A stretch of DNA of 64,000 bases from Planctomicrobium piriforme. GTDB taxonomy: Bacteria; Planctomycetota; Planctomycetia; Pirellulales; UBA1268. This document shows, in pieces, positions 4,627-51,542 of the stretch. The notes beneath the pieces are model-generated. The model was not told the origin of the DNA. It saw only the letters and a program-made list of their open reading frames with translations, and ran no database searches. Where the stretch lies: the NCBI GenBank assembly GCA_945861585.1, contig CAMAVC010000001.1:5947-69946 (forward strand). The letters run 5' to 3'. Position 1 is the stretch's first letter. The number at the start of each line of letters is the position of its first letter. A program made the position numbers and the translations under genes.

Positions 4627-6033
4627 ATGTGCCCGCACGTGCGTCCCGACACACTCACCGCCCGGCTTGTCCTGCCCGTCGTCGGGCTCGTGCTCGCAGG
4701 CGTGCTCATCAACGTGGGGTTTGCCGCGTGGCTGGCGACGCGTCGTGCGACCACCGCGGCTCGCGAGCGGCAGGAGCGGGTGGCTGCCGCCCTCTCGGAG
4801 TCGCGTGTCGCCCTCTCTCCCGCCGTGCTCGACGCGCTGCACGCCCTCACCGGCAGCCACTTCCTCGTTTGGAATCCGACGTCGCGGCAGCCCGGTGCCG
4901 CATCGTTCCCCGCCGAGGAGCAGGCCGCGATCACGAACGAGATGCTCGCTGCCGCGATCGAGGCCGGCCGGATCGAGATCGCCGGCGTCCGCTATTCCAT
5001 CGGGGTCGCTCGGGCGCAAGGCGTCCGACCGGAGGGCGTGCTCGTGCTCACGCCGCAGAAGCCGACCCTCGCGGCGACCCTCGAGACCCTCTGGCCGGTG
5101 CTCGCGGTGGCGGCGGGAACGCTCGCGGTGTTCGTGCCGCTCGCGCTTCGCACCACGCGGTCGCTTGCGGGCAGGATCACATCGGTGGAACGACACGTCG
5201 ACCGGATCGCCGCCGGCGAGTTCGGCCAACAACTGGCCGACGCCGGTTCCCGGGACGAGGTCGATCGACTCGTCGCCGGCGTCAATCGGATGAGCACGAC
5301 GCTCGCGAGCCTGCGCACGTCGCTCGTCACAGGCGAGCGACAGCGGCTGCTCGGCCAGTTGGCCGCCGGCTTCGCCCACGAACTACGCAACGCCATCACG
5401 GGCGCCCGGCTCGCCATCGACGTGCACGCCCGCCGCTGCACCCGCTCGTCGGAGACGGCCGACGAGAGCCTCGCCGTCGCCACGCGGCAGTTGGCGATCG
5501 TCGAGGAGGAGGTCCGCGGGCTGCTCGCGCTTGGCAAGCCCACGGCGGCGGCCCGAGGGCCGGTGGCCGTCGACGACCTGCTCGCGGCGGTTCGTGATCT
5601 CACCGCTCCACGTCGCGACCATGCCGGCGTGCGGCTCGAATGCGAAGTCCCGACCGGCATCACACTCCTCGGTCGACCCGATTCGCTGCGGGCGGCGCTC
5701 GTCAACCTCGTGCTCAACGGAATCGAAGCCGCGGGACGCGGCGGAGTGGTGCGACTGACCGGCACGTCGGCCGACGGCCGGATCGATCTCGCCGTGGAGG
5801 ACACCGGCCCCGGTCCGCCGGCCGCGATCCGCGCCTCCCTCGGCGAACCCTTCGTGACGGGCAAGCCCGAGGGGATCGGCCTGGGGCTCGCGATCGCCAA
5901 GGCCGTGGCGGAGGATCACGGCGGCACGCTCGCCTGGGGCCGCAGTCACGACCGCACGCGGTTTGCGATCTCGCTGCCGGCGGAGACACTGAAAGGAACG
6001 TCCGCAGTGCATCCTTCGAGACCGTGCGCATGA
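4627..6033 (+). CDS. sensor histidine kinase (2 TM, HAMP, HisKA, HATPase_c)
   Basis: Contains H-box FAHELRNAITGA, N-box LVNLVLNGIEAA, G-boxes VEDTGPGP and GIGLGLAIAK, and a HAMP-like segment RTTRSLAGRITSVERHVDRIAAGEF. The track start at 4591 is a TTG; ATG at 4627 is preferred. The stop overlaps the next gene's start (ATGA). Confidence 0.85.
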   Translation: MCPHVRPDTLTARLVLPVVGLVLAGVLINVGFAAWLATRRATTAARERQERVAAALSESRVALSPAVLDALHALTGSHFLVWNPTSRQPGAASFPAEEQAAITNEMLAAAIEAGRIEIAGVRYSIGVARAQGVRPEGVLVLTPQKPTLAATLETLWPVLAVAAGTLAVFVPLALRTTRSLAGRITSVERHVDRIAAGEFGQQLADAGSRDEVDRLVAGVNRMSTTLASLRTSLVTGERQRLLGQLAAGFAHELRNAITGARLAIDVHARRCTRSSETADESLAVATRQLAIVEEEVRGLLALGKPTAAARGPVAVDDLLAAVRDLTAPRRDHAGVRLECEVPTGITLLGRPDSLRAALVNLVLNGIEAAGRGGVVRLTGTSADGRIDLAVEDTGPGPPAAIRASLGEPFVTGKPEGIGLGLAIAKAVAEDHGGTLAWGRSHDRTRFAISLPAETLKGTSAVHPSRPCA

Positions 6034-11093: not shown

Positions 11094-11624
11094 ATGGCCG
11101 CGGATGACAGCGTGGATCTGGCGGCGTTCATTCGGCCGGTCCCCGACTTCCCGAAGCCGGGCATCTTGTTTCGCGACATCACGCCGGCCCTGGCGGAGCC
11201 CAGGGCATTCGCCCTCGCGATCGATCGCATGGCGGCGCCGTGGCGGGGTGAACCGCTCGACGCCATCGCGGCCGTCGAGGCCCGTGGCTTTCTGTTCGCC
11301 GGCCCGCTCGCCCTGGCCCTCGGCGTGGGCGTGATCCCGGTGCGAAAGCCGGGGAAACTGCCCGCCGAGACGATCCATCACGACTACGATCTCGAGTACG
11401 GCCGTGATCGCCTCGAAATGCACAAAGGCGTGCTCGCCCGGGGCTCCCGGGTGCTCGTCGTCGACGACGTTCTGGCCACCGGCGGCACGGCGGCGGCCTG
11501 CATGCGGCTCATCGAGGCGGGCGGGGCGATGGTCGTGGGCGCCGCATTCCTGATCGAGCTCGAGGCCCTCGGCGGCCGGGAACGGCTGACCCCCCACCGG
11601 GTCGAAACCGTGCTGAAGTACTGA
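11094..11624 (+). CDS. apt: adenine phosphoribosyltransferase
   Basis: Has FPKPGILFRDITP, EARGFLF and the PRPP-binding motif VLVVDDVLATGGTA. The start lies 3 nt after the sigma-factor stop. Confidence 0.9.
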   Translation: MAADDSVDLAAFIRPVPDFPKPGILFRDITPALAEPRAFALAIDRMAAPWRGEPLDAIAAVEARGFLFAGPLALALGVGVIPVRKPGKLPAETIHHDYDLEYGRDRLEMHKGVLARGSRVLVVDDVLATGGTAAACMRLIEAGGAMVVGAAFLIELEALGGRERLTPHRVETVLKY

Positions 11625-11669: not shown

Positions 11670-11756
11670 CGGGAGGTGAGGGGGTCGGCGAACGCTCGAG
11701 GAGCATTGGGCCGCCCCGGCCCACGCGACGAGACTTTTGCCGCCCCCGAACCGGCG
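11670..11756 (+). repeat. intergenic structured repeat, copy A (87 nt); candidate ncRNA or REP-like element
   Basis: Aligns with 50370..50477 with 5 substitutions over 85 shared nt. An outer stem pairs GGGGG(U)CGGCG with UGCCGCCCCC. An inner hairpin reads GGGCCG-CCC-CGGCCC. It lies between the apt stop (11624) and the floA start (11809). Confidence 0.6.
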
Positions 11757-11808
11757 CCCCCACCACGGGAGCGTGCCCTTTCTGGCTTCCGTTCGTATGA
11801 GGTGACGT

Positions 11809-12780
11809 TTGAACCAGGCTCCCGTCCAATTGCCGCTCCCGGTACTCTTCGTTGGCGGCATCGCGCTTGGGCTCTTCGCCCTCACGCTGCTCCTCTTGAT
11901 CTTCAACTACGGGCAACTCTGGTTTCAGGCGTTCTGGTCGAAGGCGCCCGTCACGTTCCTCGAGCTCCTGGGCATGAGCCTGCGGAAGGTGAATGCCCGC
12001 ACGATCGTGCAGGCCAAGATCATGGCCACGCAGGCCGGTGTCGGCCGCGACGCCTCGGTGCGGCGGCTCGAGGCTCATTATCTCGCCGGGGGCGACGTGC
12101 CGCGGGTGATCCGGGCCCTGATCGCCGCCCACCGGGCCGATCTCGACCTCGACTTCGACCGGGCGTGTGCGATCGATCTCGCCGGCCGCGACGTGCTCGA
12201 TGCGGTGCAGACGAGCGTGAACCCCAAGGTGATCGACTGCCCCGACAGTGCCAGCGGCAAGTCGACGCTCTCGGCCGTTGCCAGAAACGGCGTGGAGCTC
12301 AAGATTCGGGCTCGCGTCACGGTGCGCACGAACCTCCAGCAGCTCATCGGGGGAGCCACCGAGGAGACCATCATCGCCCGGGTCGGCGAGGGGATCATCA
12401 CGTCGATCGGCTCGGCGGAGAGCCATTTCGAGGTCATGGAACATCCCGACACGATCTCGAAGGCGGTGCTCCAGCGGGGCCTCGACGCCCAGACGGCGTT
12501 TCAGATCGTGTCGATCGACATCGCCGACATCGAGGTGGGAGAAAACATCGGGGCCAGGCTCCAGGCCGATCAGGCCGAGGCCGACACCCGCGTCGCCCGG
12601 GCCAAGGCCGAGGAACGCCGGGCATTCGCGATCGCCCGTGAGCAGGAAATGAAGGCCTCGACCGCCGAAAACCGCACGCGTGTGCTTCAGGCGGAGTCGC
12701 TGGTGCCCAAGGCGATGGGCGAGGCTTTCCGGGCCGGCCGCATGACGACAGCCCCAGGGAACGCCCGCCCGCCTGCTTGA
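11809..12780 (+). CDS. floA: flotillin-like protein FloA (UPF0365/YqfA family)
   Basis: TTG start preceded by GAGGTG. An N-terminal TM helix is followed by the SPFH-like body [19 protein letters not shown]...[19 protein letters not shown]...[24 protein letters not shown], typical of FloA. Confidence 0.85.
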
Positions 12781-23901: not shown

Positions 23902-23944
23902 AGAGGTTCCTCGCATGACGTTCACGATCAGGGATCGCCTCAGT

Positions 23945-42231: not shown

Positions 42232-44715
<2,484 letters not shown>

Positions 44716-44733
44716 GACAGGCTTCAGCCTGTC
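44716..44733 (+). terminator. palindromic hairpin GACAGGCT-TC-AGCCTGTC immediately after the gyrB stop (member of a repeat family)
   Basis: Read directly. It begins 1 nt after the TAG at 44713-44715. The identical 18-mer recurs at 62528-62545, and a variant GGCAGGCT-CG-AGCCTGCC occurs at 47255-47272. No U-tract follows. Confidence 0.5.
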
Positions 44734-45020
44734 ATGGCTGCGTGGGGCAAGCGTCCCGCTTGCCGTGCGTAGCCCTCCAAAGTGCGCCGGCTCGGGGCTA
44801 CCCCGTACCGTCTCGCCGGTCGTTCGCTGTGGGCCTCCAGCCCTCCGCTCACTCGGATGTGCCTGCGCTGCCTGGAGCGCATTCGCTGCGCCATCCATGG
44901 CTTCGCTGGTCACATACGCCGTCACAACGGCAGGGGCAGCCCCGAGCCTCCCGCATTCGATGATGAGGAAGCCCGAGGCGTAAGCCGAGAGGATGCCCCG
45001 ACGATCTCGTACGTGCGCCG

Positions 45021-49519: not shown

Positions 49520-50362
49520 ATGAGAATCGACTCCCACCAGCATTTCTGGAACTATTCCGCCGCCGAATACCCGTGGATCGGCGCGGGGATGGAGCGGCTG
49601 GCCTGCGACCACCTGCCGGCCGACCTCGAGACCGTCGCACGGCCGGTGGGCGTCGTGGGGAGCGTGGCCGTGCAGGCGCGTCAGTCGCTCGCGGAGACCC
49701 GCTGGCTGCTCAGCTTGGCCAAGAAGCATCCGTTCATCCGCGGCGTCGTGGGCTGGGTGGATCTACGGAGCGAACGTGTCGCCGACGACCTGGCGATTCT
49801 GGCTCATGACGAACAATTCGTAGGCGTGCGGCATGTCGTGCAGGATGAGCCCGATCCGCGGTTTGTGCTCGGGGAGGCCTTCGTGCGGGGCGTGCGGGCG
49901 CTCCACCGGTTCGGGCTCACGTACGACCTTCTGATCTATCCGAATCAGTTGCCGGCAGCGATCGACCTGGTGGGCCTGCTTCCCGAACAGCTGTTCGTGC
50001 TCGACCATCTGGCCAAGCCGCGGATCAAGCTGCCGCCGAAGGCAGATGAGATTGCGGACTGGCGGCGCGGCATAGAGACCCTCGCCCGGCACGACAACGT
50101 GTGCTGCAAGCTGTCGGGGCTCGTCACGGAGGTGGCCTGGCGGCAGTGGCAGCCGGCGGATTTCACGCCGGTTCTCGACATCGCCCTCGCCGCCTTCGGC
50201 CCAGACCGGCTGATGTTCGGCAGCGACTGGCCCGTGTGCCTGCTCTCTGCCGAGTATGCGGAAGTTGCTGGAATCATCGACGACTTTATCTCGACACTCA
50301 CTCCCGCCGAGCAATCGCTGATCTGGGCAGACACGGCCTGCCGTGTGTATCGAATACGATGA
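49520..50362 (+). CDS. amidohydrolase-2 family lactonase (L-fuconolactonase-like)
   Basis: Motifs: MRIDSHQHFWNY, VAVQARQSLAET, LDHLAKPRIK, MFGSDWPVCLL. Confidence 0.8.
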   Translation: MRIDSHQHFWNYSAAEYPWIGAGMERLACDHLPADLETVARPVGVVGSVAVQARQSLAETRWLLSLAKKHPFIRGVVGWVDLRSERVADDLAILAHDEQFVGVRHVVQDEPDPRFVLGEAFVRGVRALHRFGLTYDLLIYPNQLPAAIDLVGLLPEQLFVLDHLAKPRIKLPPKADEIADWRRGIETLARHDNVCCKLSGLVTEVAWRQWQPADFTPVLDIALAAFGPDRLMFGSDWPVCLLSAEYAEVAGIIDDFISTLTPAEQSLIWADTACRVYRIR

Positions 50363-50369
50363 CTGGAAA

Positions 50370-50477
50370 CGGGAGGCGAGGGGGTCGGCGAACGCTCGAG
50401 GAGCATTGGGCTGCCGCAGCCCACGCGACAATCCGAAGGACCGCACAGCGGCGACTTTTGCCGCCCCCGAGCCGGCG
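50370..50477 (+). repeat. intergenic structured repeat, copy B (108 nt; has a 21-nt insertion relative to copy A)
   Basis: Same element as 11670..11756. The inner hairpin here is GGGCUG-CCG-CAGCCC. It begins 8 nt after the stop at 50362 and ends 33 nt before the ATG at 50511. Confidence 0.6.
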
Positions 50478-50510: not shown

Positions 50511-51542
50511 ATGCAAGCGATCCTGCTCGAACAGCCAAAAACATTTCGTTTCATCGACATCCCTGAGCCACCGCCTCCCGGACCGGGCGAGGCGGTCGTG
50601 CGCGTGCATGCGGTAGGCATCTGCGGCACCGACTATGGCGGCTACCTCGGGAAGATGCCCTTCTTCAGCTACCCGCGGATTCCCGGACACGAACTGGGGG
50701 TCGAGGTGGTGGCCGTGGGGCCAGGTGTCACGAACGTCCGGCCGGGCGACCGCTGCTGTGTCGAGCCCTACATCAACTGCCAGCGGTGCTCTTCGTGCCA
50801 GCGCGGGCTCACCAACTGTTGCGAGCACCACCAGACGGTCGGCGTGCACTGTGACGGCGGCCTGCGCCCGCTGTTCACCGTGCCGGCCCGCAAGCTCCAT
50901 CCGTCGCCGCGGCTCTCGCACGCCCAAAATGCCCTCGTCGAGACGCTCGCGATCGGCTGCCATGCGGTCGATCGGGCTGCACCCCAGCAGAAAGAGACGG
51001 TGCTCGTGATCGGTGCGGGGCCGATCGGCCTTTCGGCGCTCGAGTTTGCGAAGCTCACGGGGGCCCGCGTGATCGTGATGGACATGGCCGCCAGCCGCCT
51101 CGCATTCGTCCGCGAGAGCATGGGCGTCGCCGACACGGTGGCCGCCAGCGGCACGGCAGCCGACGAGGCCGAGATTGCGAGCCTCACCGCCGGCCGGATG
51201 TGTGACGTCGTGATCGACGCCACGGGGAGCAACGCGAGCATGGCAGGCGCGCTCAGGTTGTGTAGCTTCGGTGGCCGGCTCGTGTACGTCGGCATCACGC
51301 AGGCCGAGGTCTCGTTTCCGCATGCGCCGGTGATGCACCGCCGGGAGCTCACGCTCCTCGCCAGCCGCAATGCGCTGTCGCGGGATTTCACCCGGATCAT
51401 CAGCCTCATCGAGGAGGGCCGGATCGACACGCAGCCGTGGATCACGCACCACGTGCCGTTCGCCGACACGATCCGGGCCTTTCCGGGTTTCCTCGAGCCG
51501 GGGAGCGGCGTGATCAAGGCCGTGATCGAGATGCCCGTCTGA
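50511..51542 (+). CDS. zinc-dependent alcohol/polyol dehydrogenase (MDR family)
   Basis: Trimmed to MQAILLEQPKTF. Motifs: GICGTDYGGY, GHELGVEVV, structural-zinc Cys cluster CQRCSSCQRGLTNCC, and LVIGAGPIGL. Confidence 0.85.
   Translation: MQAILLEQPKTFRFIDIPEPPPPGPGEAVVRVHAVGICGTDYGGYLGKMPFFSYPRIPGHELGVEVVAVGPGVTNVRPGDRCCVEPYINCQRCSSCQRGLTNCCEHHQTVGVHCDGGLRPLFTVPARKLHPSPRLSHAQNALVETLAIGCHAVDRAAPQQKETVLVIGAGPIGLSALEFAKLTGARVIVMDMAASRLAFVRESMGVADTVAASGTAADEAEIASLTAGRMCDVVIDATGSNASMAGALRLCSFGGRLVYVGITQAEVSFPHAPVMHRRELTLLASRNALSRDFTRIISLIEEGRIDTQPWITHHVPFADTIRAFPGFLEPGSGVIKAVIEMPV

Follow-up and report, generated by a model that had tools for sequence, protein, structure and literature searches.

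To our knowledge, hardly any non-coding RNA elements or small mobile repeats have been described from planctomycetes. Among the closest described systems, the properties of ERIC/IRU elements are well established. These imperfect palindromes of ~127 bp from Enterobacteria and Vibrio are intergenic, probably co-transcribed and form a long imperfect hairpin with a conserved centre. Their size variants arise by insertion at fixed internal sites, they are conserved across genera, and they behave in an orientation-dependent manner. The repetitive extragenic palindromic (REP) sequence in malEFG of E. coli and ERIC in Yersinia are precedents for effects on mRNA decay or expression. The Correia/NEMIS elements of Neisseria and the RUP and BOX elements of pneumococcus are small non-coding transposable elements of the miniature inverted-repeat type (MITEs). 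They have terminal inverted repeats (TIRs), TA-type targets and no adjoining transposase, and they form RNA hairpins in mRNAs; BOX and RUP show an orientation bias relative to genes. REP/BIME sequences and GTAG-tagged REPs with a REP-associated tyrosine transposase (RAYT) lie downstream of genes, between co-directional or convergent ORFs, have a GC-rich stem with a G(T)AG tag on its 5' side and plausibly act as a 3' mRNA barrier (PMC3733652; PMC2817692; PMC3116915). A review of GTAG-tagged REPs describes this genomic placement and also reports multiple REP families and tyrosine transposases from Rhodopirellula baltica (PMC3733652). Here, we compare with these systems an intergenic element that occurs twice in a 64-kb stretch of Planctomicrobium piriforme DNA (contig CAMAVC010000001.1; this whole stretch of 64,000 nt is called the window).

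The element is a new example of the familiar class of REP/MITE-type repeats and not a new kind of RNA. It belongs to a widespread mobile non-coding repeat family that is new and apparently undescribed. With ERIC/IRU, it has all the properties listed above in common, but there is no sequence similarity, the phylum is another one, and the Pirellulales core can also occur without outer arms and contains tandem G.A and K-turn-like loops. With Correia/NEMIS, RUP and BOX, it shares the small size, the non-coding nature and the missing transposase, in part of the family the TIRs, putatively the target type and the formation of RNA hairpins in mRNAs, and, with BOX and RUP, an orientation bias. Whereas their TIRs are conserved, the Pirellulales arms decay, the central 85 nt are nearly invariant, and the copies in the window have no TIRs. 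The placement and the plausible role are those of REPs, a G(T)AG tag is present in part of the copies, and the phylum fits, as Rhodopirellula baltica has several GTAG families. REPs, however, are simple palindromes of 20–40 nt, often in inverted doublets, whereas the Pirellulales element measures 85–126 nt, has conserved asymmetric loops and forms direct tandem arrays, and no RAYT gene was found adjoining it. Each subclass is matched in part only: the element exceeds a classical REP in size and complexity, a RAYT gene was not found, and TIRs are present in part of the family. We favour, with moderate confidence, the reading that the element is a non-autonomous mobile repeat of freshwater Pirellulales, of the REP/MITE kind, with a constrained structured module and a role in mRNA that we infer.

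Both copies in the window lie on the + strand. Copy A, the 85-nt core at 11670–11754, is matched by the covariance model with 109 bits over the full model length and is further supported by its fold and by covariation. Copy B (50370–50475), a 106-nt size variant of the core, is matched with 64 bits and supported by pairwise alignment and orthologous copies; the best match elsewhere in the window reaches 15.7 bits. A 32-mer of the element occurs exactly 2 times in the 64-kb window, and shuffles predict 0 occurrences. In the pairwise alignment, the shared unit runs from CGGGAGG to GAGCCGG. A sequence-only reading of the window had proposed an 87-nt element between + strand genes that recurs at 50370–50477. 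The recurrence, the places and the strand are confirmed, but the conserved unit is 85 nt long (11670–11754). The size difference of copy B was implied by these earlier coordinates but had not been spelled out: 23 nt at 50430–50452 stand in place of copy A's GA, a net gain of 21 nt. This module on the + strand, AATCCGAAGGACCGCACAGCGGC, holds extra small hairpins and is found at the same site in unrelated copies as well, with compensatory stem variants (CCGC/GCGG vs CUCGC/GCGAG).

We count 6 substitutions between copies A and B over the 85 shared nt, not the 5 reported before, and 4 of them form two compensatory pairs. One pair is the change from C-G to U-A at one stem position of the apical hairpin, which had been recognised correctly. 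The other, U11677-A11750 in copy A vs C-G in copy B, lies in the outermost helix and had been missed. Of the remaining two, one is inside the apical loop, as described earlier, and one adjoins the insertion. The ends, thought to be discrete and to have unrelated flanks, are fairly discrete: nhmmer aligns copy A over the core alone, but copy B with ~18 nt more on each side that retain weak similarity to the arms of the family.

The family comprises >230 copies in >30 Pirellulales/Planctomycetia species genomes plus metagenome contigs. A scan of species-representative genomes with a 20-mer of the core gave at least 112 loci in >30 species, with several copies each (here and below, loci from all searches are numbered with an L). 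Among the matches listed, nearly all come from Planctomycetia/Pirellulales metagenome-assembled genomes of lakes and similar habitats, and L080 (Pirellulales bacterium GLSM_20803) is closest to the window. In metagenomes, a pattern designed for divergent forms added at least 120 contigs, which hold two further subfamilies with the same outer stems and a different apical sequence. The covariance model matches 115 sequences in the genome set and 121 in the metagenome set, and together with nhmmer it recovers additional copies that lack the 20-mer. The existence of further copies, which the sequence-only reading had expected, is thereby established in both sets. Some labels of the source genomes are unexpected: L014, L016, L024, L029, L034, L037 and others that bear the element are labelled 'Candidatus Kuenenia', and one is labelled Chitinophagaceae. 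These labels look like binning or taxonomy errors because the flanks of the element match Pirellulales loci.

The copies fall into three main size classes (87, 108 and 117 nt as measured, lengths that include 2 extra nt), with extra hairpins at a single site making the difference. At several orthologous loci, the core differs in size, with 85 nt vs 106, 115 or 126 nt (L091/L050, L042/L009, L071/L094, L035/L111 and L036/L110). It follows that the extra hairpin came or went at the locus itself, or that there is conversion between copies. Head-to-tail tandem arrays of 2–5 units with a regular spacing of 97–160 nt occur in L122 (2082–2350), L176 (1047–1450), L180 (12332–12731), L210 (3654–3985) and L200 (4000–4241), and their copy number varies between related contigs (4 tandem copies in L176 vs 2 in L220). 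A truncated copy in L043 (~5000–5019, - strand) ends after the apical hairpin and is fused to the 5' end of a sulfatase-like ORF (translation ...NIIYVMTDDQSYGD...), probably by deletion or rearrangement at the element.

No copy was found in the viral contigs searched. Rfam 15 gave no gathering-score match in the whole window and, in a permissive scan of copies A and B, nothing that overlaps the core at E<=10; for a full extended copy, the overlapping matches were at chance level only (E 3.3 and 8.8, bits far below gathering). This agrees with the earlier reading, which did not recognise the element as any named RNA family. None of the papers searched has its sequence in print, and keyword searches gave general REP/MITE work only. 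The 'Rhodopirellula-1' motif has no Rfam accession in the table of its paper (Weinberg 2010) and could not be compared with the element.

The core folds into a rod-like hairpin of five stacked helices with a tandem G.A loop and a K-turn-like loop between them, and one site takes the extra hairpins. In copy A, helix 1 pairs 11675–11677 with 11750–11752 and is followed by the tandem G.A/A.G (11678–79/11748–49). Helix 2 pairs 11680–84 and 11686–92 with 11736–47, with U11685 bulged and a conserved G11690.U11738 pair. Helix 4 pairs 11694–98 with 11729–34. In the K-turn-like loop, AGGA (11699–11702) stands opposite GA (11727–28). Helix 5 pairs 11703–04 with 11725–26, and the apical hairpin pairs 11707–13 with 11717–23 around the loop 11714–16. 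The + strand of copy A folds with -56.6 kcal/mol (z = -2.4) and adds three short helices to the two that had been predicted from the window sequence. Of those, the outer stem of GGGGG-U-CGGCG with UGCCGCCCCC and its bulged U, and the inner hairpin (GGGCCG-CCC-CGGCCC in copy A, GGGCUG-CCG-CAGCCC in copy B), are both present in the minimum-free-energy folds and covary throughout the family.

For the covariation analysis, we used a model (R1) with the fold of copy A as given structure and a gapless seed of 26 sequences, and counted pairs on model-based alignments. This route was chosen over RNAalifold on a plain MAFFT alignment, in which the consensus was poor and 4G/5G length variants were misaligned. 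The genome set holds 110 distinct sequences; the metagenome set holds 104, mostly from the other subfamilies. In these sets, 97% and 94% of the cells, respectively, are paired. Pairs changed on both sides number 17/29 in the genome set and 15/29 in the metagenome set, vs 5.1±1.4 and 7.5±1.4 under column shuffles and 3–6 and 4–9 when the partner is slid by 1–3 columns; the alignments are fitted to the model and so favour the structure, but the gap to both controls is nonetheless large. Cells changed on both sides number 72 in the genome set and 128 in the metagenome set (shuffles 37±8). Individual copies show several compensated changes within one stem, such as GGCACGGAGG/CCUCCGUGCC in L063 and GAGUGAAU/GUUCACUC in L084; L015 and L040 have the compensated stem GGGGA/UCCCC. 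The extra hairpins are likewise compensated (UCCGCCG/CGGCGGA vs UCCACCG/CGGUGGA). Further copies thus vary in ways that preserve the stems, and the earlier claim of selection on structure is supported in both sets.

The weakest helix is helix 4, in which the subfamilies differ at the last pair (main, G-C; second, G.G; third, C-G). At the junction of helices 1 and 2, the tandem G.A/A.G is replaced by Watson–Crick pairs in some copies. In the second internal loop, GA-GC faces GC-GA beside a variable bulge of 2–3 nt. The GA dinucleotides of this loop are invariant in all three subfamilies. Its bulge measures 3 nt, plus an unpaired G, in the second subfamily and 2 nt in the other two. This loop resembles a K-turn in that a tandem G.A/A.G beside a short variable bulge lies between a Watson–Crick stem and a short GC stem. 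The canonical bulge of 3 nt differs from the 2 nt of two subfamilies here.

The G.U pair of helix 2 is conserved in 99/110 sequences of the genome set and 102/104 of the metagenome set, and minor-state cells hold 52 G.U/U.G vs 24 A.C/C.A. The structured strand is the + strand of the window, which is the sense strand of the flanking genes, because the opposite strand would give an A.C mismatch for the conserved G.U. This fits RNA and also top-strand single-stranded DNA (ssDNA). A coding reading was rejected, as the substitution pattern is compensatory and not codon-like. An integron attC site was rejected as well: no GTTRRRY is present at the 3' end in the sequences read, and copies A and B are separated by 38.7 kb and flanked by housekeeping genes.

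Copies A and B are lineage-specific insertions because close relatives have empty sites. For copy A, we compared the FloA orthologue loci of close relatives (97–91% protein identity). The spacer between apt and floA measures 184 nt in the window vs 74 nt (L113), 73 nt (L114) and 67 nt (L116), and the blast gap difference at the site is 110–117 nt. The insertion absent in these relatives (~11675–11790, + strand, ~110 nt) consists of the core and a 3' tail of ~30 nt (CGCCCCCACCACGGGAGCGTGCCCTTTCTGG). In the alignment, it is a single event with its left junction exactly at CGGGA|GGTGAGG and without a left arm. We considered the CGGGA on both sides of copy A as a target-site duplication but dropped this reading, since it is not general in the family. 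The spacer that holds copy B, between an Amidohydro_2 family gene and an alcohol dehydrogenase (ADH) gene, has 148 nt in the window, L120, L080 and L010, the three loci with orthologues of copy B, vs 9 nt in L118. It is also shorter in L117 (58 nt) and L119 (59 nt), which have a different small GTAG-tagged hairpin at the stop codon instead. A flank blast among all loci gave filled/empty site pairs for other copies too (L076, L020, L086 and L028). One of them involves the window itself, where ~23906–23942 (- strand) is an empty site and the orthologous spacer of L076 (Planctomycetia bacterium ELA673) carries a copy.

About a third of the family members are extended units of ~160 bp, with a left arm of ~50 nt, the core and a right arm of ~27 nt. 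The ends, CTAGAGCGCATCCGAGAT... (also given as CTAGAGCGCATCC...) and ...ATCTCGGATGCGCTCTAG, are good TIRs, and the whole unit folds as a single rod with -79 kcal/mol (z = -3.8). Extended copies have CTAG at both ends (sometimes CTAA or TTAG), and adjacent units share one CTAG. These ends look like the signature of a TA duplication within CTAG (IS630/Tc1-mariner) or of a YTAR duplication (IS5 group), the duplication itself being putative. A clean empty-site junction for a full-length extended copy was sought in L086 vs L037, and none was alignable. Many upstream ORFs end 46–48 nt before the core, and many convergent ORFs end 27–28 nt after it, because in GC-rich DNA CTAG is mostly supplied by TAG stops.

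The arms vary between lineages, and the core does not. Both window copies lack recognisable TIR arms and are later, lineage-specific insertions without them; MITE arms without a core were not seen among the loci examined. Clustering of the two genes on each side of ~220 copies, on assembly contigs that are broken by repeats, gave no transposase and, apart from one gene pair named below, no recurrent neighbour family. For this clustering, the element was trimmed from the ORFs, as read-through ORFs shared its translation and gave a false family. A clear match to a MITE terminal repeat, which the sequence-only reading had named as a refutation, is present in the TIR-bounded extended copies of relatives but not in the window. 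Such a TIR-bounded MITE refines the claim of a structured element and does not refute it, since conservation is stronger in the structured core than in the TIR arms.

The constraint on the core is best seen at orthologous loci. Between the window and L080, the core is identical at 105/106 positions, whereas the fourfold-degenerate sites of the ADH gene are identical at 129/177 (73%). For the window and L010, the values are 104/106 and 173/197 (88%). L079 and L107 have identical cores (85/85), with 118/153 (77%) at fourfold-degenerate sites of the downstream gene, and in the set of L079 with L083, L102 and L107 the arms are 77–83% identical. The core thus changes at a rate at least 20x below that of near-neutral sites and also below that of the element's own arms. 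Arms and flanks decay and the core persists, so it is maintained by selection or by conversion among copies on which selection itself acts. The orthologous loci with different size variants imply that conversion between copies or re-insertion occurs, which could make cores more alike. Even with conversion, the family consensus itself must be under selection.

To describe the genomic context, we called genes with a self-trained codon model, which is crude and was trained on ORFs with GC3 > GC1, and considered neighbours within 150–200 nt. It replaced an earlier position-specific gene model that confused sense and antisense ORFs in high-GC DNA. Copies sit after stop codons, downstream of ORFs, between co-directional or convergent genes. 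The upstream gene is on the same strand as the element in 47 cases and on the opposite strand in 10 (genome set), and in the metagenome set the ratio is 48:10. Between co-directional genes, sense and antisense copies number 27:4 (p = 3e-5) and 11:2, respectively. Divergent contexts are found 2 times in each set, and the downstream gene in the metagenome set is convergent in 40 cases and co-directional in 23. A palindromic CTAG target would account for the position after stop codons, but not for the orientation bias between co-directional genes, which points to a strand-specific effect. The sole recurrent neighbours in the clustering are the members of one abundant planctomycete gene pair, which we take to be DUF1553-like/DUF1501-like and which brackets seven copies.

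The genes around copies A and B are all on the + strand. Copy A follows an adenine phosphoribosyltransferase-like gene (apt; Pribosyltran, PF00156) at 11094–11624, the start being approximate, and precedes floA (PF12127) at 11809–12780, both identified from the ORF list and orthologue Pfam matches. Copy B lies between the Amidohydro_2 family gene (49520–50362), previously called lactonase-like, and the zinc-binding ADH gene (50511–51542, start ATG 50511), and its helix 1 starts 12 nt past the TGA stop (50360–50362) of the former. The names given to these genes before were borne out through precomputed Pfam matches on orthologues (Pribosyltran, FloA, Amidohydro_2, Zn-ADH). Neither a scan for sigma-70-like promoters in or before the window copies nor a consensus scan for a hairpin with a U-run terminator in these copies gave a candidate, and their only U4 lies inside a stem. 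Of the functions that had been offered for the element, a REP/MITE-like repeat is supported by the empty sites in relatives, the TIR-bounded extended copies and the placement after stop codons. A canonical terminator finds no support in the scans of both copies, nor does a 5' UTR regulator in the neighbourhood, as there is no common downstream gene.

Other repeats share the window with copies A and B. A GTAG-tagged REP hairpin, GTAGGACAGGCTTCAGCCTGTC, lies at 44712–44733 on the TAG stop of a + strand gene that ends at ~44715. Its family is also found in L015, L028, L036, L037, L073 (three times), L077, L090, L093, L103, L110, L115, L117 and L119, and the TAG of the tag is often the stop codon. 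L119 has a compensatory variant of this hairpin (GTCAGGCC..GGCCTGAC), and in L115, L117 and L119 the hairpin is found in the very spacers where the window has copies A and B. Another dispersed repeat, of ~165 nt (44787–44951), has the TIRs GGCTCGGGGCTACCCC and GGGGCAGCCCCGAGCC (arms 44789–44804 and 44933–44948). In blastn, it has 70–80% identity to sequences in at least 17 other loci, sometimes as inverted pairs, and at its end it has a sequence (GGCTCGGGG) similar to the outer stem of the element studied here. In L005 and L042, the right end of a repeat of this type lies ~15 nt upstream of a core copy. Other direct repeats of the window (15.9–31 kb and 62.5–64 kb) are mostly conserved coding motifs of paralogous genes, probably sulfatases, and not non-coding repeats.

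For the mobile repeat with a structured module, we propose the following course. The family has spread by insertion just past stop codons. In part of the family, the core is carried in the ~160-bp TIR-bounded unit that ends in CTAG, in the target style of IS630/Tc1-mariner (TA) or the IS5 group (YTAR). After insertion, arms and flanks decay and the core is retained. Co-transcription would then place the core at the upstream gene's 3' end or in an intercistronic position, where it would fold. With a protein bound to it, the folded core may be a barrier or a site of processing and so determine mRNA decay or how strongly the neighbours are expressed relative to each other. Most likely, the element binds a protein and serves as a barrier or for processing, at mRNA 3' ends or between cistrons, to judge from the analogy with known repeats, the orientation bias and the G.U evidence.

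Several points weigh against this proposal. The RNA-level function is an inferred one, and this applies to transcription, protein binding and the effect on mRNA alike, whereas the repeat family, its fold, mobility and constraint, and the bias in position and orientation are shown. Strand-specific ssDNA transposition would also give covariation, G.T tolerance and conserved unpaired bases. A MITE mechanism leaves unexplained that the window copies have no TIRs and that copy A was inserted without a left arm, and a cognate transposase was not found near ~240 copies. The context counts depend on crude codon-model gene calls, and orthologous copies make them non-independent. Conversion or re-insertion could explain part of the in-situ conservation without a host function.

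According to the main rival reading, the element is the substrate of a purely selfish ssDNA transposon whose hairpin is recognised in trans by an HUH/Y1 transposase (RAYT/TIRYT or IS200/IS605-like), with no host function. The 5' G(T/G)AG would be the tag, and conservation would reflect the need for recognisability plus conversion between copies. This explains covariation, strand specificity, the GTAG tag and arm-less insertions equally well. In its favour are a structure that is specific to the top strand and allows G.T, and the insertion of copy A with neither TIR arms nor a clear duplication. About a third of the copies have GTAG immediately 5' of the stem, its TAG is the stop codon of the upstream gene in L042, L050 and L091, and the bona fide GTAG-REP hairpin family in the same genomes behaves alike. 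Several GTAG REP families and many tyrosine transposases are also what has been reported for Rhodopirellula baltica (PMC3733652). The commonest tag, however, is GGAG and not GTAG (~47 and ~37 of 115 copies, with ~11 CGAG), and an element of 85 nt with conserved asymmetric internal loops is not a palindrome of 20–40 nt. No Y1-like ORF was found next to or near ~240 copies, in a weak test: the best match of a tblastn search with an approximate E. coli RayT sequence as the query (E = 0.03) lies inside a 1142-aa ORF. In-situ conservation and orientation bias are harder to reconcile with the selfish transposon. Orthologous copies are 98–100% identical vs 73–88% at fourfold sites, which it can explain only through frequent conversion, and the sense bias of 38:6 between co-directional genes in both sets together is stronger than a replication-strand effect should give. 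We consider this rival possible but rather unlikely.

The position after genes would also suit a non-canonical terminator or insulator without a U-tract, spread by a mobile element, in which the GC-rich rod halts RNA polymerase at gene ends. The upstream gene is sense in 83% of the cases, the downstream gene is convergent in 63% of those in the metagenome set, divergent promoter regions hold very few copies, and the core region forms a highly stable hairpin (-57 kcal/mol). But no U-run follows the stem, the consensus scan finds nothing in either copy, and a simple terminator has no need of an invariant internal-loop sequence. The genes around copy B and around the copies at seven other loci are tightly linked and probably co-transcribed, and several species retain these copies. 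Copy B in particular is unlikely to be a strong terminator because its flanking genes are 9 nt apart in L118 and the copy is kept in four genomes. A terminator is thus quite improbable. Even less probable is a stand-alone small RNA or protein-sponge RNA that is made from its own promoter and titrates an RNA-binding protein in tandem arrays. The arrays of 2–5 head-to-tail units in L122, L176, L180, L210 and L200 with their 97–160-nt spacing, and the invariant GGA-containing loops and tandem G.A motifs, are in line with it, but no promoter-like site was found inside or ahead of copies A and B, the majority of copies occur singly in short intergenic spacers, which they fill, and the orientation tracks the upstream gene, as co-transcription predicts. 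A riboswitch or cis-regulatory 5' leader of the downstream gene is largely refuted. Many copies end 25–60 nt before a same-strand start codon and combine conserved loops with a variable stem site, yet the downstream genes are unrelated (floA, ADH, epimerase, DUF1501-like and others), with none that recurs beyond the abundant planctomycete gene pair. In about half of the cases, the downstream gene is on the other strand, and close relatives differ in the presence of the element at one locus.

In freshwater Pirellulales, the family is abundant; it disrupts metagenome assemblies, and comparison supports its fold with unusual clarity. Its addition to RNA and repeat libraries would prevent its rediscovery as a candidate riboswitch or small RNA, and it is usable as a lineage marker. 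The family is a good system for asking about co-option into mRNA control because the core is held far tighter than neutral sites while the transposition arms decay. A further-reaching and doubtful extension of the mobile repeat with a structured module is that the core is a domesticated protein-binding RNA module, which mobile elements seeded at dozens of 3' UTR and intercistronic sites per genome to form a post-transcriptional control network in freshwater Pirellulales. Its signatures would be a rate of change of the core >20x below that of fourfold-degenerate sites at orthologous loci and the strong depletion of antisense copies between co-directional genes. If true, this network would be a bacterial counterpart of the transposon-derived regulatory RNA elements of eukaryotes.

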